This document shows positions 2,273 through 43,075 of a stretch of DNA of 44,175 bases, piece by piece. How positions within the stretch are numbered: the first letter of the stretch is position 1; each line of letters starts with the position of its first letter. Made by a program: the position numbers and the translations under genes. The notes beneath the pieces are model-generated. The model did no database searches, was not told the DNA's origin, and saw nothing but the letters and a program-made list of their open reading frames with translations. Source of the DNA: Catajapyx aquilonaris (taxonomy: Eukaryota); assembly GCA_000934665.2 (NCBI GenBank), contig JYFJ02003265.1:1-44175 (forward strand), in the 5' to 3' direction.

Positions 2273-2471
2273 TAAAGCAGTAACGACCAGAAGTAGCTGC
2301 ACTTGGCTGTTTTAAAACGTCAAACAGATTTTTTTCGCTCAGTGGTGGTTTTCGACGTTTGAGCCTAACATATACACCCAAACATTTTGTTCATTAACAC
2401 TTGCTTGGGGTGGGCCAAATTTTTTTTTTTTTTCATTGTAGGTCTTGCAATCACCTAATGATCATACTAAC

Positions 2472-2690: not shown

Positions 2691-2699
2691 GGTCCTTAC

Positions 2700-11800: not shown

Positions 11801-14800
11801 ACATCTTGAAGGAGATACAGTTACATTCCTCCTATATACTTGCACATCCTTCAAAATGCTTGACACTTGTAACAAATAACAGTTGTGGTACAACCAAACA
11901 CCCCCCCCTCCCCCGCCTTTTTTTTTTTTGCCTCTCTCGTTAGGTAGTTCTTGAAATACTAACTGGTTTGGGCAGCTTTTTTCTACAATAACATGGCTTA
12001 CATTTGACATTCTCCTTCATGTACTTTCCGCCTGTCTAGTGTCACTCGTGAGCCCAGCAGTGGATGTGTATTCCTTTGGCATGTGCGCTCTTGAGATGGC
12101 AGCTCTGGAAATTCAAGGCAACGGGGACTCAGGGAACCAGGTGACTGAGGAGAATGTGCAGAGAACCATTGATTCCCTGGAGGACCCCCAGCTCAAGGAC
12201 TTCATTCGCAAGTGCCTGAATCTGAACCCCTCCAAGAGGCCCACTGCAAGGGAGCTGCTTTTCCATCCAGTGCTCTTTGAAGTGCACTCGTTGAAGCTCT
12301 TGTCTGCACATGCACTTGTTAATTGCGCAGGTGGTTATCCTATAGTTATTTTCTTGACACTTATTGCTAGATGTAGGGAATGTGGGATTGTAGTGCAAGG
12401 TGGAAGCATTTAGGAATATGACTCATTGTAATTGAAGGGCACAGGAAGATGAACCTGAGAAAATTACATTTAATCTACCCTGACAATACTGGGCTGACTG
12501 CAGTATGCTTTTATGGCCAGGCACAAGCAGGGGAATTGAAAAGGAACTTGTTTCCCAACCAGAGGCACCGACCACCTGGCATCTTATTTCTCAAGCTAGA
12601 AACATACGGGATGCCTCAATGCTCAGTCAGGACCCAGGCAGCATGTTACTCCCAAACTGGTCCCCAATTGCCCTGATTGTGCCCGGCCTAAGTGAACCTC
12701 AGTCAGAATGGCCACAGTAGCAACAGCATTTTGAAACTTATTTATAGGGCTTTGTAAGAAATAAGTGTAGGGTGTTTTTACCATGAATGATGCAGGCAGT
12801 GTTTGTGAACCACCACAAGAACGTTGTGACACAGGTCCATTTTGATGCCTTCGTAACAGCACAAGTCAGAACCTCAAACAAAAAATTTCTCAAATGTTTT
12901 CAAAGTTAATTCTTGTGGCTAGGATGTTTTTTCCTCTCCTAATTGATGTGATACCCTAATAACGTATTATATTGTAAAAAAAATAATCAACGTTTATTGA
13001 TCCTTACAAATGCAATTAAATAATGCTGTCAGTACAATGCTAAGATTGCGCCTGCTCAGCTGGGAAGCTCCCCTTTGTCTTGGTGCATTCTGAATGCCTG
13101 CAGGCTGGTAATTACTTGTTAGTGCTACTTCACATGCTCATGACCCAGCTGTCTCTCAAGTTGATGCAGTATGAGGTGGCCATTGTGTTGCTCACATACA
13201 CGATGGTCCAAGGGAGGATGGACGATCGCTTACAAAAAAAATCCGTAACCATAAAGCAATGATTGGTTACTCAGAGCAGTACAAAGTAACTGCATACCAT
13301 CCCCTCCTAGAGAGAAAAAAAAACAGTTGCTGACTGCTATTTCTGCCATCATACAAATAGGGTTAGGTGATGGGGGTTGGCGGAGGGATCGCACTGTCAA
13401 GAGGGGAAGTCTGCTTGAGGACAAGAGCCTAAACAAATATCTGATTTTCCATCCTACTTGAAAGCCAGTCATAATCTCTACAGTGTACAGGGACCCCTTT
13501 TTTTTTGCAATTAGTTCCAGCTACGATTCATGTAATATTATGCACTGTCACGGGAACAGACAAAATGAGTTTGAGGTTTTTACATACTGGAATTTGACTA
13601 TGAGAAAAGGATAATAATAATAATAATTCATACCCCGTTATCAGCCATCGGCTCTTTAGGGGGGAAAGTTTGTTTTGCCTGCTTTATTTTTGCTTTCATT
13701 TTACTGTGCTCTTTGGGATAGGATAGGGACGGGAGGAGGCGGCTGTGGCCTATTAATTACGGAAGCAACTCCGGAATTTTTCTGGAAGGACCGTGGGAAA
13801 CCACAGAAAACCACGGTCAGAGTTGCCGGCCCCGGGATTCGAACCCAGGACCTCCCGATTAGCAGTCGGACGCTTTATCCACTATGCCAACCTGCTTCGG
13901 TATGAGAAAAGGATAAATAATGCTGTATTTTTCTCCACTCAGCCAATATATCCGAGACCATTACTGATGAGGTCCTTCATCGTCACTATGGACCAGAGGT
14001 TGTGGTAGCTGACATCCGCCACCCACAGCACCCAGATATCCCTGCAGTGGAATACCGCATGTCAAATGTTCCAGTCACAGAGAAGCTAGAAAAGTTTGTG
14101 GAAGATGTCAAGTTTGGAATATATCCCCTGACTGCATATGCCTTGTTGCCCCGACACCGACCTTCAACTGGGCCAGGATCTAGAAAGCCCAGGGCAACCT
14201 CTCCTGAGACGTCAGGAGGTGAGGCAGTTGAATCATCGACAGGTCCCCAGGTCAGTGAGGAGGAGGATGATGTGGAGGCCAGAAGGATTGTGAATATGAT
14301 GTGCAATGTAAAGCCAAAGGATGGAGCAGGGAATGGTGGGGGAAATGGGGGAGGAAATGGGTTGGGGGCACTTCTTATGACAATATTACTGAGGATGGAT
14401 GACAAGATGAATCGCCAGTTGTCATGCGAAGTCCATGAGAACGACACTAGCATTGGCTTGGCAGATGAGCTTGTCAAGTTTGGATTCATCAATGAGGTAA
14501 GGATCTTCAAAGAGCTGTACGGTACGATGAATTGATGTCATGAGCAAATAGTTTTGGGAACATCTTTCAACTGGACGTGTAACTATTAAATTCCAGTACT
14601 GCACTGGTGCCATTTTCATACTTTCACACAAGTAGTTGTGTCATGATGTTTTATGACACATGCTGCCAGTTGTGGTCCATCTTTTTAACACACTAAACAA
14701 TAAAATTGATTTTTTTTGCATGGTGCACGTAGGATCGAACTCTCAGAATAATTGTTGACGATAGTACTGCATTATATTATTGTGACAATTTTAAGTAATT

Positions 14801-15053
14801 TAATCTTGCAGAGTGGTAAACAAAAAACTACATATATTTTTCCTTGGGTATATATTTGCATAAGAAAATGTTACATTTACAATAATTGATGGAGGAGAAA
14901 TATTTTGACAACTCTTATTCCTGGTTCCATCAGGAAGACCGAGAGAAGATTGCAAACCTCATAGAAGAGACCCTGCGAAATCGTTTCACACCGCCAGCAA
15001 ATCAGCACCCTCAGTTTCCTCAACAGCCCTCGTTAACACAGGTTGCAACATAG
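5859..15053 (+). CDS. Madm: Nuclear receptor-binding protein (NRBP1/Madm) pseudokinase, 545 aa; exons 5859-5990, 7724-8180, 8870-8953, 12040-12330, 13943-14496, 14934-15053
   Basis: Family motifs EDESEILEESPCGRWLKRREEV, AYLAMDTEEGVEVVWNEV, HGNLTCDTIFIQHNGLIKIGSVAPD, AVDVYSFGMCALEMAALEI and LRMDDKMNRQLSC. All introns are GT-AG with compatible phases (0,1,1,1,0); total 1638 nt. Confidence 0.96.
6309..6690. mobile_element. Decayed Tc1/mariner-like fragment
   Basis: TA|CAGGGTGTCC terminus typical of Tc1/mariner-superfamily elements, plus a VYATKV...SITPDML peptide resembling a transposase C-terminus. No matching second TIR was found. Confidence 0.35.
6708..6934. mobile_element. Palindromic MITE with internal (CCTAA)n tract
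   Basis: CTTACTGGCGTGCGGGA ... TCCCGCACGCCAGTAAG inverted ends, inner GGGGGCAGC / GCTGCCCCC, and AACCTAACCTAACCTTACC at about 6827-6845. Confidence 0.7.
9845..11426. mobile_element. Foldback-like element with about 600-bp inverted arms in NRBP intron 3
   Basis: AAACAGGTCAAGTTGACTAGAATATGACTTGG... pairs with ...CCAAGTCATTTTCTAGTCGACTTAACCTGTTT, and complementarity continues to about 10480 / 10810. The arms contain about 180-bp direct subrepeats (GACCCCTCTGCAGGTCA.AGTGATTGT at about 10107 and 10287). Confidence 0.85.
10489..10655. mobile_element. Tc1/mariner-type MITE (CAGTGTTGGACAT TIR, TA TSD)
   Basis: TA|CAGTGTTGGACATTAATC...GATTAATGTCCAACACTG|TA; a second family member lies at 38854-39025. 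Confidence 0.85.
13615..13900 (-). mobile_element. tRNA-derived SINE (family B), well-preserved copy
   Basis: Minus-strand head has A box TGGCATAGTGG, an anticodon-like arm GACTGCTAATC and B box GGTTCGAATCC, with a (TTA)n tail. Exact 16-bp TSD TATGAGAAAAGGATAA at 13599-13614 and 13901-13916. Confidence 0.9.
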
Positions 15054-15287
15054 ATCAGCTGGACGACCTTCAGGAATTATATCCCCCTCCCACATTTAAA
15101 GACTGATTTATTAAAAGGAAGAAGCGAAAGAGGACTAGCTAATGTGTATATATATGCCGGGGCCTTTTTTTCATCTTGATTTTGTTGTCTACCCCTATAT
15201 TGCTAAAGAATGTGCCACATTTCATCTTGCAACATGGACTGTATAAAAAAAATTCGCTATGTACATAATAAAAAGGGGAAACAAAGC

Positions 15288-18200
15288 TTAAGTTTCATTG
15301 GATATCATGTTGGCTACATGCTTGTGGACATTAATCATGTTTTCTCTGATCATGCTGACGTTACGATCACTGCCTCGCACTCGCTCCAGCAAGAGTCTGC
15401 TCCGATGAGCAAACAATCTCCTGGCAGCCTCAATGTGATCAGTTATCAAGACCTCCACTTTTGTTCTGGCGGAAATAACTTCTTTCCAATCTCCAAGGTT
15501 ACGCTGCGTTACATAGAAGGGCAGCTCATTCAGTGGATACTTTTGCTTCCGGTTGTAGTAGTCCTCGTACAGCAAACCATACTTCTGGGCCAGTTGGTGG
15601 TTCACCACTAGCAGCTCCTCCACCATGGTCTGCAGCTTACCAGTGACTATACGACGCTTGGTTGAATATGAATCAAATTTGTTGGTTGTAGTTATCAATT
15701 CTGAGAAGCCAACCTTGAACAGGTTTGAGGCGTACTCCAGCAAACCTTCGAGGCTGGAGCACTCCACGGTTGCTGCTTCTACATGCGCCCTGTGAGGTAG
15801 AATACATTAGTCTTGCAACAATTGTCTAAATGAATCGATGAATAACATGCTGGCCCACTAAATCGCAAGCACCATTTTGTTCGTGTTACAAAAACACAAT
15901 AATAATGAGTGATAGTAGAGACCATAAATAGCATGAATTCTAAGGTGAATTTTTGCTAAGGCCATATTAATTTGATTTGCTACAGCCAATTTTTTTAAAA
16001 ATCTCCGTGCTGGGCCATCTTTGGCCCTTTTGGGGGACCTTTTTACGAAATGCCCTGGTCAAAGGGCAGGGTGACTGGGAGGGGATGTGCAAACAGCAAA
16101 CTGCAATGTCATATCATTGCTTGGTCGTTTTGTGAAGTCCCCCGGGTGGATTAGCCTGTCGGAGATTCCACCCGAGACAAAGCCAGAGACTGCCCAACTC
16201 TGCATGAGATGAAGGGAGGAACCCCAGATGAGATTTGATCCTGGGACCTTAACATCCGTGGGCGCATACATTACCACAGCGCCACTTCGTCTCCCCATGC
16301 TACGGCCAATTTAATTACATGGTGTTCAAAAGTTTTCACATAGTGTAAATGATCAGGCCACAAAGCCCTATGGCAGAGCTATTCAACTGGCGGACCCCAG
16401 TCCAAATCCAGACCGCGACGCAATTTGGTCCGGACGCGACAACATACAGGACAGTTTGAAATAGCATGATAAATTGAATAGCTGATTTTCTAAAGGGCGT
16501 AAGTCCATTTTCGTCGGTTTTGATGCGGATTTGTATAGATAAATAGCTCCCCTATGAACTGACATTATAGAGGGCTGATTGTAGTGAAGTGAAGACCACA
16601 CTGCCAACAGAAATCAACTTTCACAAGGCGTACACAGAGGAGGTCCCCATCAACGACAAAAAAATTGCGGACATTAAGAAAGTCCTCAAAGTACATCCCG
16701 GAAGAGCACCGCCCCTTCTACGACAAGATCGTGTCGTGGAAGACCACTGTAGCGGACTCTGATGACTGAAAACCAGATACTTTTCAGTACATTAAAGGAT
16801 GTTGTCAAGTTACAACAGGTTTTAACATTACAGTAATGCGTTGATTTTCTACTTTCAACTTTGAAGAGGTCATACATGTAGAACTATGCATACCTAACAT
16901 GTGCTACTGTACGTATTTAGTAGTAATTAACTGTTAGTAACTTCAGCTAAATTGCTTCCCAACGCAAATCTTTAGCTTTGATGGAATTTTGTTTTTTTAA
17001 ATGCAAAACATGTACACAGTGACTTACGCCCTTTAGAAAATCAGCTATTCAATTACTAATTCATGATTTTTGGAAAAAGTGCTACCAATTTCATCAAATA
17101 CACACCCATTCAAATCTCCCACATCTCACCTAAGCTCGTGTGACCTTGAACCCCCCAAAAAGTTTAGCCTGCGGTGGGCTCGTTCCCCACCCTTTACAGC
17201 TTGTTCCCCTTGTGCTTACGAAATGCCCCCCCCCCCCCCCTCCTCCGAAATTTTTTNCTTCTGCCTATGTGCCTGTACATGTCTTCATATGCCCTGTCTT
17301 GATTGGCCCTTCTATCCTTGCTGCACATGTTTATATTTTCGGATATGAACCCTGTGGTACGAACTAAATCTATATATTTTTACCCGGGGGGGTCCGGACC
17401 TTCAATGGCCCAGGAAAGGTAAATACTGGACCTTGTCAGAAACTAGTAGAATACCCCTGCCCTATGGCCTTAACTATCCAGCTAATTTAGCACAGGAAGT
17501 ACCCGTTTTACACCATTAACTGGTTCTGGAAAAACACGACGTAAAGTGTAATTGCACGAAACGAGACAAAATTATAATATAAGTAAATGAGATAGGTTCC
17601 AAAATTTCCAAACATTTTCCACAGGCAGTACTACAGTAATATTGCTAATATTGCTGTTTTTAATGCTGAATATTTGAAACTTTGATTAATGGGAGGTTCC
17701 AGGTTGAGGGCCATCGGGTTTTGATGGTTCATTTTCTTATTTTGACAAGAATTGGAGTACCCATAGCGTATTGTAACCAACAGTTAGAGTGCTTCGGAGA
17801 ATGCCGAGACCAACAATATGGTACTGTATGTATCGACAAGGTATCGATAGAACCTGCCACAAGGCACCATGAAAAACAAAAGAAGAGCATTTACGGCCGT
17901 GTGTTTGGTCTCAGAAGTGTTGCAGTGATGTGTTTATGTTTAGATTGTGTTGTTGTCTTCAAATTTTTCAAACAATTCAGATTTAAAAATTCCAAATGTA
18001 ATTTTAAAACCAGCATGTTAACGTGAAACGGCGTAAAACTGGTACTTCCTTTATAAGGTAACTACCATTGCAGAATATTTAAAATGTTAAGTAAACTGAA
18101 TTATCCCATGGTTTGCCACCTTTTTTAAGTGACAAAAAATAAGCAATTAATAATTCAATTAACTGAAGCTGCCAGTTTGTGTTAGTACACGAATTATCAT

Positions 18201-21200
18201 ATGTACTGCATCAATAACTCATTAATCTCAACATCCCTGAAATACTGAACATCTCATATCTCTTTGAACACTCTCTCTCTCTCTCTCTCTCTCTCTTCAC
18301 CCGCCCCATTCTCTTTCTTCTTTCTTTCACCCTCTAACTCTCACATTCCCCCAATAGAAATGTGCAGCTCTTAGATCCTAACCCTCTTGTAATTTGAGTA
18401 TAAAATATGACAGGGTCAAGCCCTGATGTTTTTTAACAGGTCAAAATATCTAAAACGACAGTTCATACTAAAGCCCTGAATAAAATCCCAATTGAATCAC
18501 TTTTTATAAGAAGGGAACAAGTCCAATTGAAAGTTGTTGGACTTGTTCCCTTCTTATAAAAAGTGATTCAATTGTCTTACTGCAATTCTTCCTTTGTATT
18601 TGTTGCCTCAGTTGTCTTTGCCTCTATGTCTTGTAAGGCATTTTCATATGATCCAATATCGAGAAGGCACAGTTCCAGTTCATCATTAATTTGTTGGATC
18701 TTTCCTTCCATACTCTGGTCTTTAGCCTGGCAGTAAAAGAGAGGTGAGATATTTAAGACGCCAACCCTTAGTGCACTCTCAAGGATGTAGCACAACTGGC
18801 ACCCCATGCAAGTTGCACACCATTTTCACCTGCTCCAGACTCCATGTGAAATGACAAGTTGCACTGTTTGGAGAGTGACTGCCCTCTAAGTAATCAGCAG
18901 TGCTATTTTGCCCTGCAATTTTGCATAGAAATGTGCAATAGGAGCAAAAAGGCATACTTGCACAGGCGCCTGTGTTATGGCCCTGAATCTAGTAAGGTAA
19001 CTTCCAATGTAGCATCTATTTTATAGGTTACATTAATGGAATGGTAAGATTTGGGTTACATCACAGGTGTACATAAAGATTACACTGACAAAATTCCATA
19101 ATGGAATTGGAGCTACAGCATGACTGCAACCTGCTACCATGCACCATGAAAATATAATTATGATGCAGAAACTCACTGTAAACAGTATTCCACACTCTTT
19201 ACTCAGTTATATAGGTTACCTGACTAAAATGTTTAATAGTACAGTTCTGACATCTATCTATCACCATAGAGTGTGTTCCAAGTATTTAGATTATTTAGTT
19301 ATCGCAAATTTTGCCCCAAGTTGTTGTTTTCATGTAGATTTTTGCACCCCATTCAAGATACCCAATCATGTGGCAGGTGCTGTATTTGACTGCACCTGGG
19401 AATAATGTGCACCTAATAGGGGAGCAAAAAGCGACACAAAAACAATTTCATACAAATAACTAAAAGGACCGGTATACTTGGAACACACTGTATTTCTTGT
19501 TAGTTTATATGTTTTAAGGTTACATTTTTTTCAACAATAACACCATCAGCCTCACTGCTTCTGCAAGGCAGTGATCGTGAGTAAAAATGAGTCACAGAAT
19601 GAGTCACAGTTTCACCCCTTGAGTAAGTAAACAGCATTACTTGCTAGTCACAGACTACTACCAGGCCTGCAGGAAAATGTAGTTGACATTTTTCATATTT
19701 CATTTCATTTCTCATTTAGGATAAGTTGGCTGTGCTCTAACAGTTTGAGAAACGTTGGCCTAAGAGATGACATGTAGGCTAAACTTGCTTTGTGATTTTA
19801 GTGGGTGGATTAGCCTAATACCAACATTGTCACTCAGAATTTTTTGCATTTTCTTTCTATGAACCTATCAATTAACTGAGTCAAGCAACCAGGAGCATCA
19901 CCTTGGCTGCCTTTGTAGCTGCCCTGAGTTCTGCCCTTCTCACTTCAGCCTGGTTCTCTGCAGCTGCCTCCCCTATCACAAGGCCTGAGCTGAAAGCCCG
20001 AGCTTCTAGTGTCCTGCTCCTTATTTCAAACAGGTCTTTCTGTAGCTGTTCCATTCGTCCATCTTTTATTGCTATGTTTCCTTCTTCCTGTTCCATTGCG
20101 AGTTTGGCCAGCTCAACTTCCTTTTGCTGCCGCTCCACAAACCGCTCCAGGGCTTCCTTCAGCTCAATCATCTGCTCCTGAGCACTCTCAATCATCTCCT
20201 CCTCCTCTGACAGGCGAGATTCAAGGTGGCTGAATGTGGCATCAACCTGCAACTTGTCCTCACGGATGTTCGTCACAGCCTGAGTCAAGTCATTCTCCAT
20301 GTCATTGTACATACTCTGAATTTCTTCCATATCTTTCTCCACTAAGGCCAGCCTCTCTGTAATCTTTTGCAGTTTTGCCATCAGTAATCCTATTGTCTTG
20401 GACATTTTCATGGTTATCCTGCAAAGTAAGAATGAATCACTCATCTCAATCTCTACATGAGAACCTTATTTTCAGTAAATTGAGTCTTTGTTCTTAAGTT
20501 GCCATTTTGCACTAGACATTAGTCACATTACACATGTTTGTGTCATAATTGCATAGTGCCTTTATTCTGACTGATTAAATTATAGTTACTAGCATAAGTC
20601 TTATTTTGCCAGATATTGTCCATCCTGATTACTGAAACAAATTGTGATACCTCTATCCTGCTTGAATTCTCTAACACTGAAAGAAATATTTGTGTCTTCC
20701 ATTAAATTGGCTCATACAGTGTGGTGAGAAAGTGAAGACTACATCTTGAGCATTTATATTCCTACAAAACATAAGTTTTTCTGCATGTCTCAATTTTCAG
20801 GAACAGTGTGCAATTTGAGGGGCATTTTTACTACACCCTTGCTAGCAAGGGGGGTAGTGACATGGAGGCAGTAAAACCGGAGAATCACTGATGTACAGTA
20901 CAGTATTTAGCAAAGATAAGACTTGGTCAGAAACTCCAATGAATTTAATGTGAATCTGGCTGTTCTGCTTCTACACAAATATACAGTCATGGACATCATA
21001 ATCTTGGCGCTTACATTGCTGTACAATAATAGCTTACTTTTTTCTCTGAGACCAGTACAGTACAATACATACAAGTTACAAACTAAACTTGTATTCGTGT
21101 GCTGCACAATTTAACAAGGTTTCTCTACATATCACACTCACGTCTTTATATTTTTCCTCATGGACTGCTGTTCGTCAACATAGTCTTCAGTTTCGTGCTC

Positions 21201-24200
21201 TATGTCATGAATACTTTTTTTGGAGACGCCTATCTTTCTCTTCAGCATCACATTCACTGACACCTTGCAGACCTTTTGAGCTGCAAGCTCTTTTTCATAC
21301 TTCTCCGCACTGCTCTGAACAAACTTGATCCGATTGTCCTGGTCAACGAGTTTTTTCTTCCAATTACCAAGCTCTTCCATCACAGCGTTCTTCTTTTCAA
21401 GCAATGCTTCCATTACACTGTTCTCTTCCTCAATTTCACGAGACACTGTTACCACAATCTTTTCACAGTCACTGATCTTCTGTGGATACTCATCAAGTCG
21501 CCTTTGAAGCTAAAGAGAATATTCATCTGCTTTACTGTGTGGCGTATGCTCAATAATGGTTCACTGATGCACATTTAAATATGGTAACTACTACTGCATT
21601 CCAAAAGTATAAGTAGCTACTGTTTGGCTGTACAGTACAAGTTTTTAAAATCATTTCCATTAATGATCAATACAGCCACATGATGGCACATGTTTTTAGC
21701 TACCCCTGCATAGAAATACAATGCCAGTGTAATCATTTTTGAATTTTGGGGCCACATTCCACAATCTTATGTAATGTACTTTCACAGCCAATCTTTACCT
21801 ATTGGCTACTCCTTACGTTTCTCAGTCTACCAAAATTTTCTGGGGGCTGAGATACAAGTGAAGGTGACCATGGCCTGACAGCTAAAAGATGCCTCACTTG
21901 AACTGTTTGAGACTTTAATTACATCATGTGAGATATTTAGTTTATAAAAATGTATTAATAATTGGCTTCAGCATCATTTTTACTAATAGTGACATACGTA
22001 TTTTTGCCGACCCTACAGAGTTTCGAGTCTGTTTCACTTAGTGTTAGTTCCCCATATCATATGCTAAATTAGAGATAATGAATGTGATTACTAGGGCCAC
22101 TTGCCCTGGGTCAGGGTTTTCATGGCTTTCTTGGGTTTATTCCTGCATGAGAAACTTTTCAAAAGTATGTCAAGTTATTTCATTTCTCCAATTCATGCTC
22201 ATCTGCATAGAGTTCAAATTATGTGAATAAGAAATAATGACAAAATGTGGCTTTTAAAAACTCACCTCTATCATACAACAAAAGTTAACTTGTAACTTCT
22301 CAAAATTAACATTGACAAGCAAACAAAATCCCATGAACAGTTTGCAAAACATGGCCAGATTATATGACAGTAGGTCTATGCAAAAGTTTTGCAGTTTGTT
22401 GGAAAAACAGAAAATCTGGAAAACATATATTATTTTGTCAAAATATTGATCATCACTTTCAATAACCCTTAGCCAACGTTGGGTCAGAAGATGAATGCCC
22501 CGGTGGTAAAAGTTTCTGAGCTTTGCCTCAAAGAAGTCAACCACCCATTGCTCAATGGTGGTGAGGCTGGCAAAATTCTTGCCAAACAAGCCATATTGCA
22601 TAGAATGGAACAGGTGGAAATCCCAAGGGGAAATGTCTGGCGAGTATGTTGGGTGCCATAGCACCTCCCATCCCAGCTCCAACAACATCTTTTGTATCAC
22701 CCTCCCTCTGGTTTTTAAAAAATATGAGAAAACAGTGTCGAAATTGGTCTTGTTGGGGTGTCACATCTCAAAATGAGGGCAAAACAGGGACTAACAGAGC
22801 AAAACTTTAAAAACAATCCCAATGGAAGCCTTGACTTTGTTGACTCACATGGCTACCACAAAACAAATTCGGTTGTCAAATTGTTTAAGTTATTGACCAC
22901 CAAAGTCAACAGCACAAACGTTTGCATAGACCTAATAAATTACAAGTTACCTTTCATACGTTAATAAGTTGTCTCGACCTTCCCTCCACTTGTAGACAAA
23001 TGAAGAAATTTTTTTATCATGAGTTCACTACTTTGCACTGAATACATTCTAATATACTATGAGTTTCTTCATGTTCGTTTCTGCCTACCTTATGAACTCG
23101 GTCAGCTTCTTGTTTATATTTCATTTCTAAACGTCCAATTTCATCTCGTACAGTTACTTTGAGGTCAGCCAGCTTATCCTTGTGGACTTTAATCATGATA
23201 TCAAGGTGGCCCACATCCTCTTTGTGTTGCATAATTAATTTGTTCATCAGGGTTACCTGAGACCGCGAAGCGCCCAGCCTTGCCTCAGCTTCCTTTATGT
23301 TGTCTTGTAAAGGATCACTGTGGTTATTGGTGAACAGCAATAGAAAGTGGATTAAAATAAGGAACATTTAGTTAAGAAGGTAGCAGGTTAGTTGTGCTAA
23401 TTCAAATTCAAGCTAATTCAAGCTTGCATACATGCAGCAGAAATGTATGAAATTTAATGGCATTCATTGATATACTGTATACTGATCCTTTCTCTTCTCA
23501 GTTGTTTCATGAAAGATTTTCTGTTGAAGTCTGGCTTGACTTTAAAACCTTTTATTACTGATATATGGGAATTTTAATAGATCATACTGATTGACCCTTT
23601 CGTTTTACTCTTCTTGGGAATATGTAATAATTGGCATCAAAATATTTATTTTGCATTTTCTGCACAACTCAGCTATAAGTATATGTAGGATATACTTTCA
23701 CACTCACACACATCCATGAAATAGCAAGAAATGGCAATTTAATGATTACATGTTCACTCTATGCCATTAATTTTTTAAACCAAGCCACATCATGACAACT
23801 TTCAGGCTGCTGGCCCATTATGCACTGCCACAGGGAAGGAATGCAATATGTCACCAATACTTCCACTTCAGGCAATCCAATGTTCGATTCTGAGAGTGGA
23901 GGGACACAGTGAGATCAGCAGTTGCAGATGCTAGGGTGGGCAGCTTGGAGCAGACTGCAGGGCAGGAATCAGCAATTAGGAAGTTAATATCACCGCATGC
24001 TTCTAGCCTCAGTCATGGCAGGTAAATGTGGGACGTGCTGCAGAATTTTCCCACTCACATAATCTCCCTCCCAGGTGACATGTCATAATGGCACAGCATT
24101 ATAGAGCATGCCTGTGCGAAGAATCAAATGTCCTGCTGGACCAATGAATTGATTCACCAACTCACATGCAGTGCAGAATATTTAGGGTGGCAGTGAAACC

Positions 24201-25236
24201 AAATGGCACCTCATCATTGCAAAATGAATTTGACTCTGATGCCCATGGAAGGATAAAGGATATTTCTTGTCATATGCTACTTTACACTCCTAAATGCACA
24301 GATATTACTACCATGTTTCCTTTGTTGTGATATGAGAGATGTGTAATGATTATGTCATCAGTCACCTCAATCATAAAATGTAGGGAATCTCATTATTCCC
24401 TTTTGCCATATAATCTCTCATTGCAAATGTATGATGTCAATGATAACAGATCACCTGAATCAGAACAATGAATTTACAGCAGGACATATTCTTCCCCAAT
24501 CCCGTCACCACAATCAAACGTTCAGCTTTTGCTTTGCTCTGTATGAATACTTCATCACCTGAGCATCTTTTCTTAAACACACCCCATCACCTGTCACTCA
24601 AGACTGCTGACCTGTTGCTTTTTGTATGTTCTCCCTTCCTAACACTAGCAGTACATTTGCCTTACTGGAGTTCCAACAGCCGATCTGATTCTTTCTGAAT
24701 GGAGATGAGCAATTTGTTTTTCTCCTTCATCTGCAACTGCAGGATCTTCAGCTGTTCATGGCACTTCTTCACCAAGGTCTCTACTTCCTTCATCTTCATA
24801 TCTTCCAGAGTCTTCTTTGGAGCATGTCCTAATATTTCTATATACTCCATATCTGTCATCCTCTTCTCCACATCATCTGCTGTACTCAACATTAATGTCT
24901 TCTTGTGCAACTCATTCACAACATCGTCCTGCCTAGACGCTATATCTTTCTCAAAATCATGCATCTCACGAATAGCGGCTGCCAATGCACCCAAAATTTT
25001 CTGGCTCCTTTCTAATATAAATATACATTTGAATTAAGACTTTATTTGCATTTTTTGAACGTCATTCAAAGTCAAATACCTTGCTTGCTAAACACAATGT
25101 CTTTTACATGTCTTCCAAGTGGTATTGTGGGCACTGTCACTTCAATTTGGTTGAGAACCATGTAAATAGCATGGAATTCTTGATCGATATTTTCAATCAT
25201 TAAGCAATCGTCAAACCTGCCCATTGTCTGGTCCAT
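15288..25236 (-). CDS. Long coiled-coil protein, 754 aa (possibly CCDC175/CCDC178-like); exons 25236-25080, 25011-24666, 23317-23089, 21509-21142, 20418-19902, 18726-18581, 15789-15288
   Basis: Six E/K/Q/L-rich heptad ORFs of the ORF track plus the 25236-25080 exon join through GT-AG introns with compatible phases (1,2,0,2,0,2) into 2265 nt ending TAA at 15288. The family suggestion is weak (size and C-terminal pattern only). Confidence 0.85.
15993..16297 (-). mobile_element. Degenerate tRNA-derived SINE
   Basis: Minus-strand head with A-box-like TGGCGCTGTGGT and a degenerate B box GGATCAAATCT, with an A-rich tail. 15-bp TSD TGCTAC(A/G)GCCAATTT at 15978-15992 and 16298-16312. Confidence 0.7.
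16476..17050 (+). mobile_element. Internally deleted Sola1-like DNA transposon
   Basis: Perfect 30-bp TIR GAATAGCTGATTTTCTAAAGGGCGTAAGTC with AATT TSD. A frameshifted transposase-like C-terminus at about 16611-16769 reads KAYTEEVPINDKKIADIKKVLK/YIPEEHRPFYDKIVSWKT. Confidence 0.8.
17493..18050. mobile_element. Degenerate non-autonomous TIR element
   Basis: AGGAAGTACCCGTTTTACACC ... GGCGTAAAACTGGTACTTCCT inverted ends. Confidence 0.5.
18271..18296. repeat. (CT)n microsatellite
   Basis: Uninterrupted CT dinucleotide run. Confidence 0.9.
18489..18574. repeat. Perfect 38-bp inverted repeat with 10-nt loop (minimal Sola-like MITE?)
   Basis: CAATTGAATCACTTTTTATAAGAAGGGAACAAGTCCAA (18489-18526) and its exact reverse complement (18537-18574). 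The AATT|GAAT... ends resemble the Sola element at 16476. Confidence 0.9.
19269..19490. mobile_element. Tc1/mariner-type MITE
   Basis: TA|GAGTGTGTTCCAAGTAT ... ATACTTGGAACACACTG|TA. Confidence 0.65.
22373..22932 (-). mobile_element. Internally deleted mariner transposon with transposase C-terminal remnant
   Basis: Peptide LGWEVLWHPTYSPDISPWDFHLFHSMQ...FYHRGIHLLTQRWLRVIESDDQYFD is the mariner YSPDLAP region. TIRs TA|GGTCTATGCAAA ... TTTGCATAGACC|TA. Confidence 0.9.
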
Positions 25237-25239
25237 TTT

Positions 25240-25923
25240 TTACTGGTCCTTCAGCAGGGAAAGGCTTCGCTCTTTTGCAAGCTTCAGCAATTCCTGAGAA
25301 AGCAGGATGAGAAAGAACATGAGTTGTCACTGTTGTTGATTTACAAAAATAGTGATGTAACCTGGAAGCATCAATTCGACCTTTTCATTGTTTTTGTGCA
25401 GTGTTGCAGATTAGGCAGATTTTGAGAAATATGAAACAGCTGGGGCTCGGATTATTTGCTTCCTTTGGTGTAAATAGTGCAAGGTAATTAACGGGGTTAA
25501 CAGTTGCGTAGTACGAATAGCAAGGATGACAGTAGGGATAGCATGAGATATGTGGAATGTCAGTGCAGCTGGCATATAGTTGTGTACTATACTCATAAAG
25601 TGAAAGGGAAATTTGAAAAAGTCAGCATGAAATACACAACTTCAATTAATACGTACCGCTCTGGTCTTCTCAATGTTCTGCGGGTTAAAGGTAACCCTGG
25701 ATGTCACTGCCTTTCTTGCAGTTTCTCGGATGAGTTTGCGCACATACAGCATGTAGGCAAACCGTATCTGAAATGTTTCAAGAAGTACCCATTATGCCTA
25801 TCTTAGACATTCCTCCCGCTCTTTAGCACTTACCAGGTCAATGCTTGCAGTAGCTGCCTTGGCCTTGGTGCCATGGCTCTTGAGATAGTCCTTGACCTGC
25901 GCCGAACCCACACCTTTCGTCAT
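25240..25923 (-). CDS. Small basic histone-fold protein, CENP-W-like, 84 aa; exons 25923-25834, 25767-25657, 25293-25240
   Basis: Spliced product: MTKGVGSAQVKDYLKSHGTKAKAATASIDL/IRFAYMLYVRKLIRETARKAVTSRVTFNPQNIEKTRA/ELLKLAKERSLSLLKDQ*. Junctions are GTAAGT...TTTCAG and GTACGT...TCTCAG, both phase 0; start context GCCAAGATGA. Helix pattern and size match CENP-W as recalled (human DLLVHLNCLLFVHRLAEES vs IDLIRFAYMLYVRKLIRET). Confidence 0.7.
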
Positions 25924-26099
25924 CTTGGCAGGTCCCGACCAAATAACTGGCTCCAACACTCTCCTGGAAATAAATTACTATATATTCTCACCATGCCACC
26001 GTCTGGATACCAGTGGTTCTCCAACTTTTCCATTATCCAATTATCATTATCAGCTCTTGTCATTATCCCGTATGGTCGTATAGGCTACCACCATACTGC

Positions 26100-26637
26100 A
26101 GAAACGTGTGTAATAAAGAACCAAGTTTCTAACCAGCTTGCGGCCCATTCAGCCCACCTTTAAGGACCCCTGCGACAGGCGAAAAGCGGAAAAGAACGAA
26201 CCTTTTCCACCGAAGGAGTGTTGTTCACGTCCCAACAGTGCTTGGCGGGAAAAGTCAAGATGGCTGCTTAGTGCTTAGTGTCCATTGGTCACCTTGCTTT
26301 TCACAGTTTCAAATAATTATGTAATACATCCAGCCGTGCATCAAGTACACCAGATCGGTTTACTCAAACTCGGCAATTGATCCAGCCGGTCCACGCATAT
26401 TTTTGCATTAAAATCTGATGTTGACCAGTTTTGCCACTTTGCTAAACAATAGAGCGTGTTCCGCCATCTTTGTGCTCCTTGCGACGGGATTGGCTGGGTG
26501 TTCCAAGATGGCGTCCAGAAGTGTGAACAAAGTGAGCATCGCAGTCCGCCGCCAGCTGTCCCTTTCCGCTGACGAGCTATTCTCCCCTGACGTCGTCGTC
26601 GTCGGTCGAGGGGCGTCGGAGGCAGCCAGACGGAACG
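26100..26637. promoter_or_regulatory. Bidirectional promoter between the CENP-W-like/coiled-coil unit (-) and RCN2-like gene (+)
   Basis: Divergent start codons about 715 bp apart (25923, 26638). E2F-type TTGGCGGGAAA at 26242-26252; YY1/Pho-type AAGATGGC or GCCATCTT at 26257, 26463 and 26505; CCAAT (minus) at 26284-26288. Confidence 0.6.
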
Positions 26638-29600
26638 ATGGGTCCCTTGCAGCTGGTGGCGATGGTGGCCTTGGCCTTGCCTTGCCTGACCGCCTCCGTC
26701 CCAGCCACGGCCGCCGGCAGCCCTCCACCGCAGCACTCGCACGCAGCGGGGGCGGCCCCAGGGAAGGAGAGGGAGCTGGACGGGGCCTACAGCCCGAGGG
26801 ACCACTCGCACTACCATGGCGACGAGCACCACACGGAATTCGACCACGAAGCAATACTTGGTACGCTCGTTATAATGTAGCACTTGCAGGAGAGGTCGTT
26901 GTCATCGCAAGCAAATCAACTCACGCAAAGATAACAGATCCATCCTTGGAAAAGTACCGATGGACAAGCTTTAAATTGTTACAGAAGTAATTATGAACTA
27001 TGACTGACCACTGCACAGAAAGTCGTCATTGATCTGGCAAAAGGACAAAATTCAGCATTTTTACAATTTTACAGGAGAGCCGAAAGAAACCTGCAAACCT
27101 CTACACGAACACGCAGGATGGCGTTTTGATTTTCCGTTCTAACTCTGACGCCACTTGTCCCATATGTTCACCGTATTGCCAGAATGTGACCCAACACTGG
27201 ATGGTGCTGGCAGAGGCCATAGTCCGATTTTAGCAAAAATGTCGAATTCGTTTCTTTGTCAGATTAAAGATCAAGCCCATATCTTTGGTCCACATGTTAG
27301 AAAAAACAGTAGTTCTCCCATCAGAAGTGTAAGCAAAAGTTGCAGTGCATCACTCTACTCCCAATTATCTATGTTGTGGATTATCCGTGCGTTGCCAAAA
27401 AATAAAGTGAGAAAAAGTCCGAAAGAATGTCACTATGTCTCGCAAACAAGGAAATATAACAGAATATTTTTCTATAGGCAGCAGACCCCTGAGAATGCAT
27501 GTCTGGCACCTCCCACTGTTCAAATTTCCACACATGCTCCAAGAAGGGAGTGAGAGTACTAAGTGAAGCAGACATTATTTTATTAAAATCATTCCACTGG
27601 CAAAGGAAATGTTATTCAGGGGCTTGCATGTTTCAAATGTAAATTGATATTGAGATATGGTGTACTTCTGTATGTAATTGTTTTATAAAGTAGCAACATT
27701 CTTTCTAAAACATCACTTATGCCACCTGGCAACCTCGGGTCCTTTGTAGAAATGTGAAAAGTGGGAGGTGCCAGACGTACATTCTCGGGCTTCCGACAAA
27801 CTGAAAATCTATGATTAGTTTTATTGTTTTCATTAAACCTTATTTAAAGCAGCATACACATTTAAAACTTTTGAATAGTTTATTTTTATAGTATCTAGGA
27901 CCATATTCAGATGATCCGTGTTTTCTAATATTGTGGAGACACCCATGCATTCACTGGCATGGATGATCGGGATTACAGTGGAATATTGTACCAATGCTAT
28001 CTTACTCGTATAATTTAGTTAAACAATACTTCTCTATTGCCATGCTCAAACAGTGCACGTGTGAATTATTGTTTTAAAAAGAGACACAAGTGTATGCTTG
28101 GTGTGTTCTGCAGGGAGTACAAAGGAGGCAGAAGAATTTGATCATCTGCCACCTGAGGAAGCCAAGAAGCGCCTCAGGATACTTCTTGGTAAAATGGACC
28201 TCAATCATGATCAGCAGATTGATCGTAATGAACTGCATGCATGGATATTACGCTCCTTCCAGTAAGCATAGTCACGATAACATGTAACAATTTTAGAGAA
28301 CGAAACTCTGTAATTTTTAAAACATTTTTGCCTCACCAGCATGTTATCGCAAGAAGAAAGTAAGGAAAAATTAGAGGAAGCTGATACTAATGAAGATGGA
28401 AAGGTCACGTGGGAAGAATATGTGGCGGAAACATTTGGCGATGACTCTGATGAGGACAATGAGATTGGTGACTCTGAAGAAGAGAAGAAAGTGCGTACTA
28501 TTGGTCATAAAGAGGTCAAAATCACTTTCTTGTTCCCAAAATTTCAGCTGATGGAGAATGATAAGGCCCTCTTCACTGCTGCTGATGCGAATAAAGATGG
28601 CACCTTAGACAAGGATGAGTTTCGGTCATTTTCTCATCCAGAGGAGAGTCCAGACATGCTCCCTGTTATCCTCAAGCAAACACTGGAAGACAAGGATGCC
28701 AATGGCGATGGATTTATTGACTTCAAGGAATATGTCGGGGAGAGAGGTTCGTGTAATTTGAGTTGAAATTAATTCCAGGACTACAAAAGAAATGGGTGCA
28801 TTTTTGCTTCAAGAAGAAATTAATTTTTCTTCAGTCTGTAGTGGGCAGAAATTTTCTCTTCTTTATGAAGGGTGGGAGAGAGGATTGGAATGTGCCCTTC
28901 ACAATAGTGAGAAGACACATATTTTTTGAAGGGTCAACCAAAAGCTACTTGAAGGTGGAATTACCGATAGCACTGTTAACATTTTCCTTTTCATGGTATG
29001 TTGTCTATGCAACAGATTATATTAGTCCTGGAATGATTTTGGAATGGTATCACAGCTTCATACTGTTGCTAAATGCATAAAACATAGTCTATGCAAGAAT
29101 GAATGCTTTTAAGAATAGGAGAAAAAGGTATCCGAAAATAAATCATACTGGTTGGTTTCCTGCTTCCAGACATGACAGACTGAAAATTTAATATTACACA
29201 TAGGCTTTACTAGCATGTGGGCAGTGGTGAACTGCCCTTCCACAAACTGAATATGTACAAATGATCTGGTTCTCAAGAGTAACAGTGAATATGGCCAGGC
29301 ACTTGCCCTGATGCACATCTCTGAATGTAAGGCCACAGTATGGAGGTTGCAAACGACTACCTGGCTTCTGACCAGTAAAACTGGAGAAGAGGCCGGTGTA
29401 CCACCACTGAGGAACACAATAAGTTAGTGTTTACAAATTTCCACTGTTGTGAAGTGTTACCCAACATTGGATGCAAAGCAGCTTTTTAGCAGATTATAGC
29501 TGGGGAGATGTTTCTTATGACAGGAAACTGAAGCTGCCTAGGAAAGATAGAAGAAGCAGCATATATCTTGCTCTGTCGCCTACCCCACGAAGATCATCCT

Positions 29601-32183
29601 GGATTGGGAGTGAAAGTTACTGTCAGCATAGATCTCAGGGTCATTGTAACACACAAGCCCCATCCCCGCAACATAGACATACCACGGTGGGGTTGTATGG
29701 GTGCTCATGTAATGGAAAGAGCCCTGAGCAGCCATTACATGTCATCAGAGGAAGCACATGAAACACTGCCAGAGGTGGCATCGGAATTTTCAGGATCATT
29801 CCAAAATCACTTTCATAAAGTGGGAGTCAGCACTATGATTTTGGCTGCATGTTAAAATCACTTTAGGATGATGATGTTGAGGTATATTGATTATATTAAT
29901 ATCTAATGGACCCGTTATTAATTATTCCTAGAAATGTACTGCCTCGTAATGGTACTGAATATTGTGTGCATAATTAGATTTAGTGCACTTCACCAGTTGT
30001 GAATGGTACATTAATTTGTAAATGTTATTTTCTTCTTGAAGCAGTGAAATTTTTATTAGGTTTTATTGTATGAGTGGTTGGGGTTTTATTTTGTGGGATT
30101 TAAAGACACATCATAAAAGAAATGAAGTTCCATCTCATAGGCCTGGAAGAACACGAGGCCTCAAAATATGACAGGAATTTCTTTGAGCGAGTCTTAGACA
30201 AAGATGGGGATGGGAAACTTGACCAAGCAGAGTTAATAGCCTGGACCAAATTCAAAACCGAGTCTGACGACAAGTAAGGCAGTCACTTAATTTGCACATT
30301 TAATATTTAAAATGAATTCCATGCAGGGTCTGTGGAGAGAACATAATTGCTGTTGTGCTTCCATTGCTCTAGAAACAAATTTTTCTGTTAAAAATTTTTA
30401 TGATGAAAGGAAGAGCTGAAATAAATACTGTAATTAGGATAATCTTTTGGATAACCTTGACAATGTCTGCAGCAGTTGCCTTGAAGACCCTGCATGTGTT
30501 CAAGTTGGGAGTTTGCTAGTCATCTGATTAATGCCTGTGAATCTTAGGAGGACACTGGCAAATAATCTGTCCTCCAAATCCAAGTAATTTAACTGCACTT
30601 ATGCACGTCTTTTGTGGAGGTGGGGACTACGTGCATTCTTGGTTTTCCCTTCCTATTCTTGAAATGAATAGTTAACGTGAACCTATTTAGATGTAACACC
30701 TCATTAGTAATTATAATACCAAATGTTACAGAATTCACTTGTCTGTACTAGCACTTCTGAGTCAAGATGGTACTCCTGTACCTGCTCAGAAAGGAAACCA
30801 AAGGCTCATTTCTTCCACTTTGCAGTCACTGATCCAACATGACGTGTGAGTTGTGACGTTGCACAATATTTCTACTGATGCAGATTTATGCTGAATTCTG
30901 TTAAATACGGAGTGGCTCCAGAGGGTTACTGCAATGTACACAATTTTAACATGAAATGTAATCAATTTATTATTATCTAGAGTGATATACACTGCCTTAG
31001 CTTACACCTCCAACAATAATAAATAGTGAAAGAGATGCATTACTTGCTCCAGTTGTTCATTCATATTGTCACTGTTAGATCTCAGTGTGAGTGTGAGGGA
31101 CTGGAATGTGTACGTGTGACTGGAGCAAGTAATCCATAGCCTTTTCCTATGCTCAATAGTTGGAGATATAAACATGAAGAATTTTACAGCATCAATTAGT
31201 TGTGCTTGGTGGAGGTGGTATGCAGGATAAGGAGCAATACTGAGCCCAATATATCGAATCCCAGCTTGCATGACAGTAATGGTCAGATTAGGTAGTTTGC
31301 GTTATCCTCTGGAGTGCTTAGTGTGAAAATTTTGCTATTGCAGTGTCTTTCACAGTTAACTAGGACCTATTTTTGACATGGCCTGTGATGCAGGTAAAAA
31401 CCGTGAAAATAAGGGTTACAGAGTGTTGCAATAGTGTCACAGATAAGATAAGTAGTTAAATTATTATTATTGAAATTGGAAAATGTGCTGAGATTTTTTG
31501 TCTTGATTAGACAGTATAATTATGCCATCCTGTGATGGTAAATGACTCTCATAACAATTAATTGCTATGACTGAGCATGAGCAAAAGTAATCCAGGTGCC
31601 AACTGATATCATGTTGCTAATGAGGTGTTCATTATGACTGCCCATACCTTGGTCATTTCTTTGAATCTTTCCCACAGCCAAAGAACACGACAAAGAGTGG
31701 CTACTAGTAGAGAAGGACAAGTTTGATCATGAGCACGATAAGGATAGAGATGGGAGACTAGATCCTCACGAAGTCCTCTCCTGGGTAGTGCCAAGTAATA
31801 CGTATGTTTTCTCATGCCCACATATGCAGTTTTCCTTCTTAAGTAGATGAATGCTAAGCACACCTGGTTTGCTGCATGTCTCTTGAAAATCCTTAGCGGC
31901 AACTACCCATCTATAGTTAATGCAGCATGTGTAGCAGTGCTGGATTTGAAAGACAGCTCAGTGCGGTTGGTATATAATAGGTGAATTGTTTATTGCCTGC
32001 TCTTATTTCAGTGAGATAGCAGAAGATGAAGTGGACCACTTATTTGCATCTGCAGATGATAATCATGACGATTATCTTGGCTTTAATGAGATCTTAGACC
32101 ATCACGATGTCTTCGTTGGAAGCGAAGCTACAGATTTTGGTGATCACTTGCACAATATACACGTCTTTCAGGACGAGCTCTAA
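26638..32183 (+). CDS. RCN2: Reticulocalbin-2-like CREC-family EF-hand ER protein, 338 aa; exons 26638-26860, 28114-28261, 28340-28490, 28548-28746, 31678-31801 (or alternative 30141-30273), 32012-32183
   Basis: Signal peptide; [29 protein letters not shown]; six EF-hand loops ([72 protein letters not shown]); [11 protein letters not shown] and a C-terminal QDEL retention signal. Intron phases are compatible. Confidence 0.93.
27488..27789. mobile_element. Degenerate palindromic MITE
   Basis: CCTGAGAATGCATGTCTGGCACCTCCCACTGTTCAAATTTC pairs with GAAATGTGAAAAGTGGGAGGTGCCAGACGTACATTCTCGGG. Confidence 0.6.
30141..30273 (+). CDS. RCN2: Alternative (mutually exclusive) EF-hand-5 exon of the RCN2-like gene
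   Basis: CTCATAG| ... |GTAAGG; encodes [44 protein letters not shown]. Phase 1 in and phase 2 out, identical to exon 31678-31801. Confidence 0.75.
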
Positions 32184-41900: not shown

Positions 41901-42714
41901 GGCAATACCTGGGTTAGGGGCTGGGGCATGGACTGCTGAAGTACTTGCGGTAGGACGTGGGTTATGGGCTGTGTCAGGACGGAGAGAGGCTGCGTTATTG
42001 ACATGGGCTGGGGCAGGGCCTGCGGTAGTGCCTGTGGCAAGGCCTGAGAAAGGGCTTGGGATATTTGCTGTGGAATTTGTTGGGTCATATGTTGGGTCAT
42101 TTGTTGTGTCATTTGTTGTGTCATTTGTTGTGTCATTTGTTGTGTCATTTGTTGTGTCATTTGTTGGGTCATTTGTTGTGTCATTTGTTGTGTCATTTGT
42201 TGTGTCATTTGTTGTGTCATTGCTTGGGTCATTTGCTGGGGCAAGGGTGGACCCATGGGTGGGGGCATGGACTGGGACAAAGACTGGGGCACAGCCTGGG
42301 GTAGACACTGAGGCAGAGATTGTGGCACAGCCTGGGACAGGCACTGGGGCAGGGATTGGGGCACATTCTGGGGTATACACTGCGGCAATGATGGGGGCAA
42401 AGGCTGGGGTGGCAGGGGTGGACCCAGAGGCTGGACTAAGGGTGGGGCCCGATGGGGTACTCCAAATGTTGCTGGGTTCCTCCTTGGTTGTGCTTGCTGC
42501 ACTTGAAATCGCATGCCCCTCTGATGGTAGTGCTGCTGCGGTTGATTTGGAAACAGATGAGGGTTTGGATGCTGTGGATGCTGTTGCATTTGCAATTGTG
42601 GATGCACATGTCGGTTGCTTTGTGGCTGCTGGGTGTGGAACCTGGCTCCACTTACAACTTTGCGTGGATCATATTGCTGCAGGTCTGGCCTGCAAGCTGC
42701 TGTTACAGGTGTCG

Positions 42715-42788
<74 letters not shown>

Positions 42789-43075
42789 GCCTGCTGAAGT
42801 TGCTGTGCCTGCTGCAGTTGCTGTGGCTGTGGGGGTCTTGGTGCTGCCTTCCTAGGTGGAGGTGGTGGTGCAGTGGCTGAAGTGGTAGTACCTGCTATAA
42901 GAGCTGGTGGGGGCTTCAGCTGGAACTTGAGTTGCTCCCGATTAGGGCTGCTCTGAATTACTGCTTGGCAGATCTGGTAGGAGCGCTCCAAGTTCACTGC
43001 TCCAGGTGGAGGTTTTGACGTAGTTTGGCGGGCACCCCCACTAGCAACGCCAGCTCCACCACTTCCAGATCGACT
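35979..43075 (-). CDS. Asx: Additional sex combs (Asx/ASXL), 3' part; exons 43075-41762 and 36848-35979, probable small exon about 43201-43140; 5' part outside the window
   Basis: C-terminal atypical PHD finger [35 protein letters not shown] and the arthropod Asx motif [36 protein letters not shown] donor at 41762 and TTGCAAAG| acceptor at 36848, both phase 0. Confidence 0.95.
36423..36671 (-). repeat. Interrupted CAG/CAA polyglutamine tract in the last Asx exon
   Basis: About 80 codons, mostly Q, interrupted by L and H. Confidence 0.9.
38103..38424 (+). mobile_element. Non-autonomous Helitron
   Basis: A|TCTCTATC 5' end, 3' hairpin ACCCGGGCAACGCCGGGT followed by CTAG|T; inserted in an AT dinucleotide with no TSD. 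Confidence 0.75.
38854..39025. mobile_element. Tc1/mariner-type MITE, same family as 10489-10655
   Basis: CAGTGTTGGACATAAAT...GATTAATGTCCAACACTG|TA with colinear internal sequence. Confidence 0.85.
39049..39485 (-). mobile_element. Non-autonomous Helitron (minus orientation)
   Basis: Minus strand begins A|TCTATCATATTAAAA and ends with the hairpin CTAGGAAAATGCGAGCAGAGCGAGGGTTTTCCTAG|T, preceded by a similar duplicated hairpin. Confidence 0.7.
39883..40436. mobile_element. Fully palindromic Tc1/mariner-type MITE
   Basis: CAGGGGGTTTCCTGTAACTCTGTAAAGACTTGCAGGGGTAATAGAGGGGACCAAGACAAGTATTTT ... AAAATACTTGTCTTGGTCCCCTCTATTACCCCTGCAAGTCTTTACCGAGTTACAGGAAACACCCTG|TA. Confidence 0.85.
42077..42232 (-). 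repeat. Coding 12-bp minisatellite, 13 units, encoding (MTQQ)n in Asx
   Basis: Plus-strand unit TTGTTGTGTCAT; translates as MTQA(MTQQ)10MTQHMTQQ. Confidence 0.95.
42716..42787 (-). repeat. Near-pure CAG polyglutamine tract in Asx
   Basis: (CTG)n run on the plus strand with three TTG codons, in frame with the Asx exon. Confidence 0.9.

Follow-up and report, generated by a model that had tools for sequence, protein, structure and literature searches.

Here we report the arrangement of two neighbouring open reading frames (ORFs) on the minus strand of a 44,175-nt stretch of contig JYFJ02003265.1 from Catajapyx aquilonaris, the whole of which is called the window below. A small upstream ORF of 84 codons ends at a TAA stop codon, and a long ORF encoding a 754-aa protein of coiled-coil type starts at an ATG 3 nt further on, in the same frame and in the same exon. 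A candidate polyadenylation, or poly(A), signal lies in the 68-nt intron that follows this shared exon. The explanation that we favour, tentatively and with somewhat less than an even chance of being right, is that both ORFs belong to one transcription unit, in which polyadenylation within the 68-nt intron would yield a short mRNA and splicing of that intron a dicistronic mRNA. Judged from the sequence, the layout is one already known from insect two-gene messages, and the locus is a candidate for a further case. The features of the small ORF and of the shared exon are as follows, with a slash marking each splice junction.

25834..25923, minus strand: exon 1 of the upstream ORF, 90 nt, 30 codons; ATG at 25923 in the context CCAAGATGA, donor CTG/GTAAGT
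25657..25767, minus strand: exon 2 of the upstream ORF, 111 nt, 37 codons, after a 66-nt intron; acceptor CATTTCAG/, donor GCG/GTACGT
25294..25656, minus strand: intron 2, 363 nt; candidate site of an internal promoter
25080..25293, minus strand: shared exon, 214 nt; last 17 codons and stop of the small ORF, first 52 codons of the long ORF
25240..25242, minus strand: TAA stop of the 84-aa ORF, next base A
25234..25236, minus strand: ATG of the 754-aa ORF, context AAAATGG, 3 nt past the stop

The minus-strand segments 25923-25834, 25767-25657 and 25293-25080, once spliced, give the 84-codon ORF. Read directly, the last of these segments carries TAA at 25242-25240, then AAA, then ATG at 25236-25234, so that the spacer is 3 nt long and both ORFs share one frame and one exon. 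This reading matches the geometry given by the initial annotation. The acceptor of the shared exon (CTGCTTTCTCAG/) is pyrimidine-rich and strong, which argues that the exon is joined to the exons upstream; its donor (AAG/GTATTT) is rather weak. The context of the second AUG, AAAATGG, is optimal. Neither the TAA nor the ATG can be lost through a length error in the A-run homopolymer, which makes a simple slip in the assembly unlikely. The two ORFs do not overlap, lie on one strand and have phases compatible with one processed transcript, which is the geometry of a gene with dicistronic mRNA in the Sequence Ontology sense used in FlyBase. Both introns of the small gene (66 and 363 nt) are multiples of three in length, and the 844-nt minus-strand stretch 25080-25923 is a single frame holding six stops in all, five intronic ones and the TAA; this is probably a coincidence.

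Coding potential was assessed with a codon-usage model trained on the other genes of the window and compared with intron background, the null consisting of 600 stop-free intron windows of 52 codons. In each of the three small-ORF exons the proposed frame scores the highest of the three. The 84 codons together score 0.17 bits per codon, a value reached by 1 of the 600 null windows, and after the coiled-coil exons had been added to the training set they score 0.32, which none of the 600 reaches. The predicted product is basic, with an isoelectric point (pI) of 10.4 and 18 lysine and arginine residues versus 7 aspartate and glutamate residues. On codon usage the small ORF is probably coding, a view that we hold with good confidence.

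The long ORF opens with the ATG at 25236, runs through 52 codons and one further base to the donor of the shared exon, and continues through six more exons, whose boundaries were curated manually.

24666..25011, minus strand: coiled-coil exon 2, in-phase splice
23089..23317, minus strand: coiled-coil exon 3, donor AAG/GTAGGC
21142..21509, minus strand: coiled-coil exon 4, in-phase splice
19902..20418, minus strand: coiled-coil exon 5, in-phase splice
18581..18726, minus strand: coiled-coil exon 6, in-phase splice
15288..15789, minus strand: last coding exon of the coiled-coil gene, stop TAA at 15290-15288

Every junction is in phase; the seven exons add up to 2265 nt and encode 754 aa, the only stop being the terminal one. 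Heptad a and d positions are at least 75% hydrophobic in 65% of 28-residue windows of the product, against 23% +/- 5% in 50 shuffles; glutamate, leucine and lysine are abundant and proline makes up 0.9%. This pattern and composition make the coiled-coil label a fair one, and the 754-aa in-phase coiled-coil ORF proposed earlier is borne out by the curated exons and the heptad statistics. The 52 codons past the ATG at 25236 score +0.07 to +0.14 in the proposed frame versus about -0.6 in the other two, and the six later exons have the same frame preference; the score of +0.07 is reached by 7% of the 600 null windows. Codon usage thus favours the proposed frame for both ORFs, and the long ORF is probably coding with a likelihood above that of the small one. 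Within the introns of the coiled-coil gene we noted, by eye, the C-terminal part of a mariner-type transposase (22257-22760, minus strand; an open frame of 168 codons with no Pfam match) and a (CT)13 microsatellite at 18271-18296. The single N of the whole window lies near 17220 and appears as an X in the ORF translations around 17130-17380.

The intron that separates the shared exon from coiled-coil exon 2 holds the element that bears most on how the two ORFs might be expressed.

25012..25079, minus strand: intron after the shared exon, 68 nt, preceding coiled-coil exon 2
25041..25046, minus strand: AATAAA in the 68-nt intron, candidate poly(A) signal of the small gene
15107..15112, minus strand: AATAAA after the coiled-coil stop, 176 nt past it, likely poly(A) signal of the long transcript

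The intronic hexamer follows the TAA at a distance of 194 nt and the donor at 34 nt, with 29 nt left to the acceptor, and it is the sole AATAAA or ATTAAA on the minus strand within 26000-24600. About 0.04 hexamers per 68 nt would be expected by chance, from a density of 5 in 8047 nt of this gene's introns. A T- and GT-rich stretch follows the hexamer, and the distances from stop to hexamer are alike at the ends of the small gene (194 nt) and of the coiled-coil gene (176 nt). The predicted signal stands within an intron, downstream of an internal 5' splice site, as in a composite terminal exon. Cleavage 10-30 nt past the hexamer would take place within the intron's final 20 nt and would thus be incompatible with splicing at the 3' splice site. 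The initial annotation had seen no room for a 3' untranslated region (3'UTR) or a poly(A) signal between the ORFs; a 3'UTR may overlap the long ORF, however, and the hexamer is present just past the donor. The small gene can therefore have an mRNA of its own, with a 3'UTR that overlaps the start of the long ORF, and a two-protein mRNA is not forced. Of that annotation as a whole, the geometry and the coding look of both ORFs stand, whereas its statement on polyadenylation, its naming of the small ORF after the kinetochore protein CENP-W and its proposed readthrough fusion found no support.

From the geometry, phases, codon usage and hexamer position we infer the following course of expression. 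A single promoter just upstream of 25923 would drive a pre-mRNA that has two exclusive fates past the shared exon. If the AATAAA at 25046 is used, a short mRNA would result that encodes the 84-aa basic protein and carries a 3'UTR of about 200 nt containing the start of the long ORF. If instead the weak donor AAG/GTATTT at 25080 is spliced to 25011, the product would be a long dicistronic mRNA with the 754-aa ORF. On this long mRNA the second ORF would be translated mainly by termination at the UAA and restart 3 nt on, at the AUG in optimal context; the 3-nt spacing fits restart after termination. Leaky scanning to the second AUG would contribute a minor share.

The promoter hints tilt slightly towards one shared promoter, given where the TATA-like hexamer and the CpG-rich stretch are placed, upstream of exon 1, together with the strong acceptor of the shared exon.

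25979..25984, minus strand: TATATA, a TATA-like hexamer 61 nt ahead of the first ATG

TATATA at 25984-25979 is the only match to a TATA or initiator (Inr) consensus on the minus strand in 26400-25237. Intron 2 and the leader part of exon 3 (25656-25237) hold no match to TATA, Inr, the DNA replication-related element (DRE) or motif 1, and their CpG observed/expected ratio (o/e) is 0.4-0.6. The sole CpG-rich stretch, with an o/e of about 0.9, is at 26400-27100, upstream of exon 1. Across 25000-27300, CpG is depleted in gene bodies (o/e 0.4-0.5) and near 0.9 at 26400-27100, a pattern suggesting that the genome undergoes DNA methylation and that its promoter islands are free of it. A gene for an EF-hand protein (about 26635-32183, plus strand) is divergent from the small ORF; the ATGs of the two are about 710 nt apart, and the first exon of the EF-hand gene lies in the sole CpG- and GC-rich stretch. 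The arrangement suggests a bidirectional promoter. The product of the EF-hand gene ends in QDEL and has EF-hand as its only Pfam match, and we take it to resemble a secreted protein of CREC/reticulocalbin type.

Several points weigh against the shared transcription unit and its translation by restart. The spliced leader contains four AUGs ahead of the second start, the first of them with A at -3; because of them leaky scanning would be poor and is unlikely as the main route. The motif UGGGA, through which TURBS, the termination upstream ribosome-binding site, is complementary to 18S rRNA, is absent (as TGGGA) from the spliced mRNA over the 150 nt that lead to the stop. The 130-nt segment reaching to the ATG folds at -33.3 kcal/mol versus -26.8 +/- 3.6 for shuffles (z -1.8), which is marginal. 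In the excerpts of PMC10275272 used here, viral restart after a long ORF requires a structured element that pairs with 18S rRNA, and the restart rules for cellular mRNAs are described as unknown. The 159 Drosophila dicistronic pairs annotated in FlyBase are a precedent in favour of the shared unit, but only 45 of the 159 loci are without monocistronic alternatives for both genes, according to the part of PMC4528330 consulted. An orthologous locus was not found in the protein-database and metagenome searches described below. Many promoters have no consensus motifs, so the lack of motifs in intron 2 is weak evidence.

The searches with the small protein used exon-wise versions or versions that read through the introns, in place of the spliced 84-aa sequence, so that their negatives are weak. 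A near-length search among 5.8 billion proteins with exon 1, intron 1 and exon 2 (X at stops) returned 1 candidate, and none scored; exon 2 gave no match in the Atlas. For the coiled-coil protein, the last exon was compared with longer proteins of the same 5.8 billion in a word-indexed search (833 candidates, 0 at E <= 0.001) and by exhaustive phmmer with 1.84 billion representatives (0 matches), and no usable match was found in the Atlas. Pfam searches of the seven exon translations gave only sub-threshold coiled-coil noise, and metagenome scans gave 115 pattern matches with coiled-coil exon 2 and 330 with the shared exon's 52 codons, 0 of them confirmed. The structure model of the last coiled-coil exon has a low predicted local distance difference test (pLDDT) score of 48. 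This blank is weak evidence, because the species and its close kin are missing from the database and fast-evolving proteins would escape detection. The database does contain animal proteins, since a single exon of the neighbouring gene for an NRBP-type (nuclear receptor-binding protein) pseudokinase retrieves 1661 proteins, the best only about 90% identical.

The initial annotation had called the small protein CENP-W-like and had placed the stop shortly after the third helix of a histone fold. Neither statement found support: with the queries just described there was no match to CENP-W or to any other Pfam family, and none in the Protein Data Bank (PDB), in sequence or in fold. Specifically, hmmscan against Pfam found neither CENP-W nor another histone-fold family with exon 2 alone (E up to 1) or with the 281-residue read-through with X at stops (E up to 10), and phmmer with exon 2 and with the read-through retrieved no PDB sequence at E up to 10. 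A single-sequence AlphaFold2 model of exon 1, intron 1 and exon 2 (89 aa, pLDDT 72) has a long helix over exon 2, a break and a short helix; it includes 22 intron-coded residues, lacks exon 3 and is not evidence of a histone fold. Foldseek of this model against PDB gave 0 matches. CENP-W is a small basic protein of about 80-90 aa, and the length of 84 aa and the pI of 10.4 fit this; the lack of a Pfam, PDB or fold match is where the small protein differs. The layout of three coding exons and the helix-loop-helix pattern presumably resemble those of vertebrate CENP-W. We place the organism by a tree of the NRBP-type sequence, which puts the window sequence beside springtails and outside the sampled insect orders (SH-aLRT, the Shimodaira-Hasegawa-like approximate likelihood ratio test, 92), and with this placement CENP-W stays possible. 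Among arthropods, the text of PMC12678787 available to us lists CENP-W from horseshoe crab, shrimp and millipede only, found by iterated searches and very divergent, and from no insect, and states that CENP-W co-occurs with its canonical partner CENP-T. The identity of the small protein as CENP-W is thus possible and unproven. If it were true and the host is a hexapod, the small ORF would encode the first CENP-W-type protein in a group for which none is identified in that text (PMC12678787). Among the papers listed by a literature search on this subject, five of six, none deals with the natural structure of a CENP-W gene, judged by titles and abstract openings.

A start site of its own for the coiled-coil gene, placed within intron 2 or the opening 54 nt of the shared exon, is a strong rival to the shared promoter, to which we give a lesser though appreciable probability. 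The two genes would then produce overlapping, separate mRNAs, and the coiled-coil message would be monocistronic and translated in the normal way. With the AATAAA at 25046 the small gene would have a 3' end of its own. No ATG occurs in the 54 nt before the stop and the intron's last one lies at about 25318, so a start at about 25316-25240 would produce a leader without an upstream AUG, followed by a start codon in optimal context. Normal scanning would also sidestep restart after 84 codons (a concern raised by the excerpted PMC10275272), and the majority of fly dicistronic loci have monocistronic isoforms too, as far as the passages taken from PMC4528330 go. Set against this are the absence of any TATA, Inr, DRE or motif-1 match and of CpG enrichment in 25656-25237 and the shortness of intron 2, only 363 nt, in which a start farther upstream would bring in upstream AUGs. 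It is unlikely, in our judgement, that the 84-codon ORF is not a protein gene at all, and that the coiled-coil gene has exons 1-3 as its 5' leader, with an upstream ORF that is due to chance or purely regulatory. Upstream ORFs that terminate 3 nt short of the main AUG are known as a repressive arrangement, the small ORF matched no homologue, family or fold in the searches above, and its splice sites were picked by a reader seeking an open frame. These sites nonetheless include good donors (GTAAGT and GTACGT) and good acceptors, codon usage favours the frame in all three exons with 1 of the 600 intron windows reaching the score, and the poly(A) hexamer stands at a typical 3'UTR distance. The lack of homologues is moreover expected, given that the conserved NRBP neighbour has a best match of 90% for one exon and 80% at full length.

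Operon-type processing, in which a spliced leader would be trans-spliced to the AG at 25244-25243 before TAAAAAATG to give a capped monocistronic coiled-coil mRNA, is quite improbable. An AG directly before the stop and a pyrimidine run (CCTTTCCCTGCT) 10-21 nt upstream of it would suit such a reaction; some crustacean lineages trans-splice, and in the NRBP tree the organism falls outside the insect orders sampled. A cut at 25244-25243 would, however, strip the upstream message of its stop codon, this AG has no poly(A) hexamer upstream of it, and Rfam matched no spliced-leader RNA family at gathering score in the 44-kb window, to which that search was confined. Still less probable is one fused gene for a histone-fold-like domain and a coiled coil, whose TAA would be a nonsense allele or a base error, be read through, or be skipped. 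Both ORFs share one frame, as they would in 1 in 3 cases by chance, and a cryptic acceptor CAG/ACA (exon start 25227), in frame with exon 2, would skip the TAA; this acceptor is preceded by a purine-rich tract and has no pyrimidine tract. The AUG in optimal context directly after the stop, the resistance of the TAA to a length error in the A run and a poly(A) hexamer that suits a stand-alone small gene all argue against a fused gene. The stop itself argues against it too, and against the readthrough fusion of the initial annotation: an in-frame extension is present, and yet UAA followed by A is a strong terminator context, leaky readthrough contexts being typically UGA followed by C. The small remainder of the probability falls to an error in the gene model. 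As for the shared transcription unit, its most specific form is itself improbable, namely that ribosomes would finish an 84-codon ORF of a histone-fold, kinetochore-type protein and restart 3 nt on, without a TURBS-like element, to make the 754-aa coiled-coil partner in a fixed ratio.

The closest known layout is that of the Drosophila pair sloth1/sloth2, described in the portion of PMC9681215 used here as having a first ORF of 79 aa, a 5-nt spacer and an optimal second start, with translation by leaky scanning. The likeness extends to the length of the first ORF (79 aa versus 84 aa here), the gap between stop and start (5 nt versus 3 nt), the second start in an optimal A-rich context, and the position of both ORFs on one strand and in one exon. 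The differences are that the start context of sloth1 is weak and permits leaky scanning, whereas the first AUG of the present locus carries A at -3 and is followed by three others, and that the second ORF here encodes 754 aa over seven exons. Drosophila pairs are backed by spanning cDNA and reporter tests (PMC9681215, same portion), while the present locus is known from sequence alone. Monocistronic isoforms are frequent alongside the dicistronic ones at Drosophila loci (PMC4528330, in part); unlike in these pairs, the second cistron would be optional here, owing to the poly(A) hexamer in the short intron that follows.

A choice between splicing and polyadenylation at a composite terminal exon underlies the switch between secreted and membrane forms of immunoglobulin mu. 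As there, an intronic poly(A) hexamer lies close past a 5' splice site and splicing and cleavage would be exclusive, but the immunoglobulin mu choice alters the C-terminus of one protein, whereas the choice predicted here would decide whether the second ORF is present on the mRNA. With the TURBS of caliciviruses and influenza B the locus shares a short distance between stop and restart, within about 20 nt in the excerpted PMC10275272 and 3 nt here. It differs in lacking both a UGGGA-type motif within the 150 nt ahead of the stop and a structure of clear stability (z -1.8), and in that the ORFs are in frame with a 3-nt gap, whereas viral TURBS ORFs are usually out of frame or overlapping. Our literature searches found no paper on the present arrangement. 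If a dicistronic mRNA exists and both proteins are made from it, restart after a long ORF could be studied at this locus in a clean natural case from an animal, and a joint function of the small basic protein and its coiled-coil neighbour would be hinted at. If instead the coiled-coil gene has its own start, the locus would represent a tight gene overlap that annotation pipelines are prone to merge wrongly or to drop.

The window holds further genes. The NRBP-type pseudokinase gene (5862-15029, plus strand) is convergent with the coiled-coil gene, their ends lying about 260 nt apart; its best database matches, all from hexapods, reach 90% identity over one exon and 80% over the full length. 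Two ORFs with THAP zinc fingers (10-390 and 2454-2735, minus strand; E 1e-9 and 5e-8) possibly represent a THAP gene or a domesticated transposase. A gene of Asx/ASXL type has polyglutamine-rich exons at 35982-36872 and 41726-43075 on the minus strand and a C-terminal PHD_3 domain (E 6e-22), and its upstream exon carries a long tandem amino-acid repeat of MTQQ/TNDT type. A tRNA-Ser(GCT) gene or tRNA-derived repeat (13824-13895, minus strand; Rfam 42.6 bits; also detected by ARAGORN) lies inside an intron of the NRBP-type gene and is the only Rfam match at gathering score in the 44-kb window.

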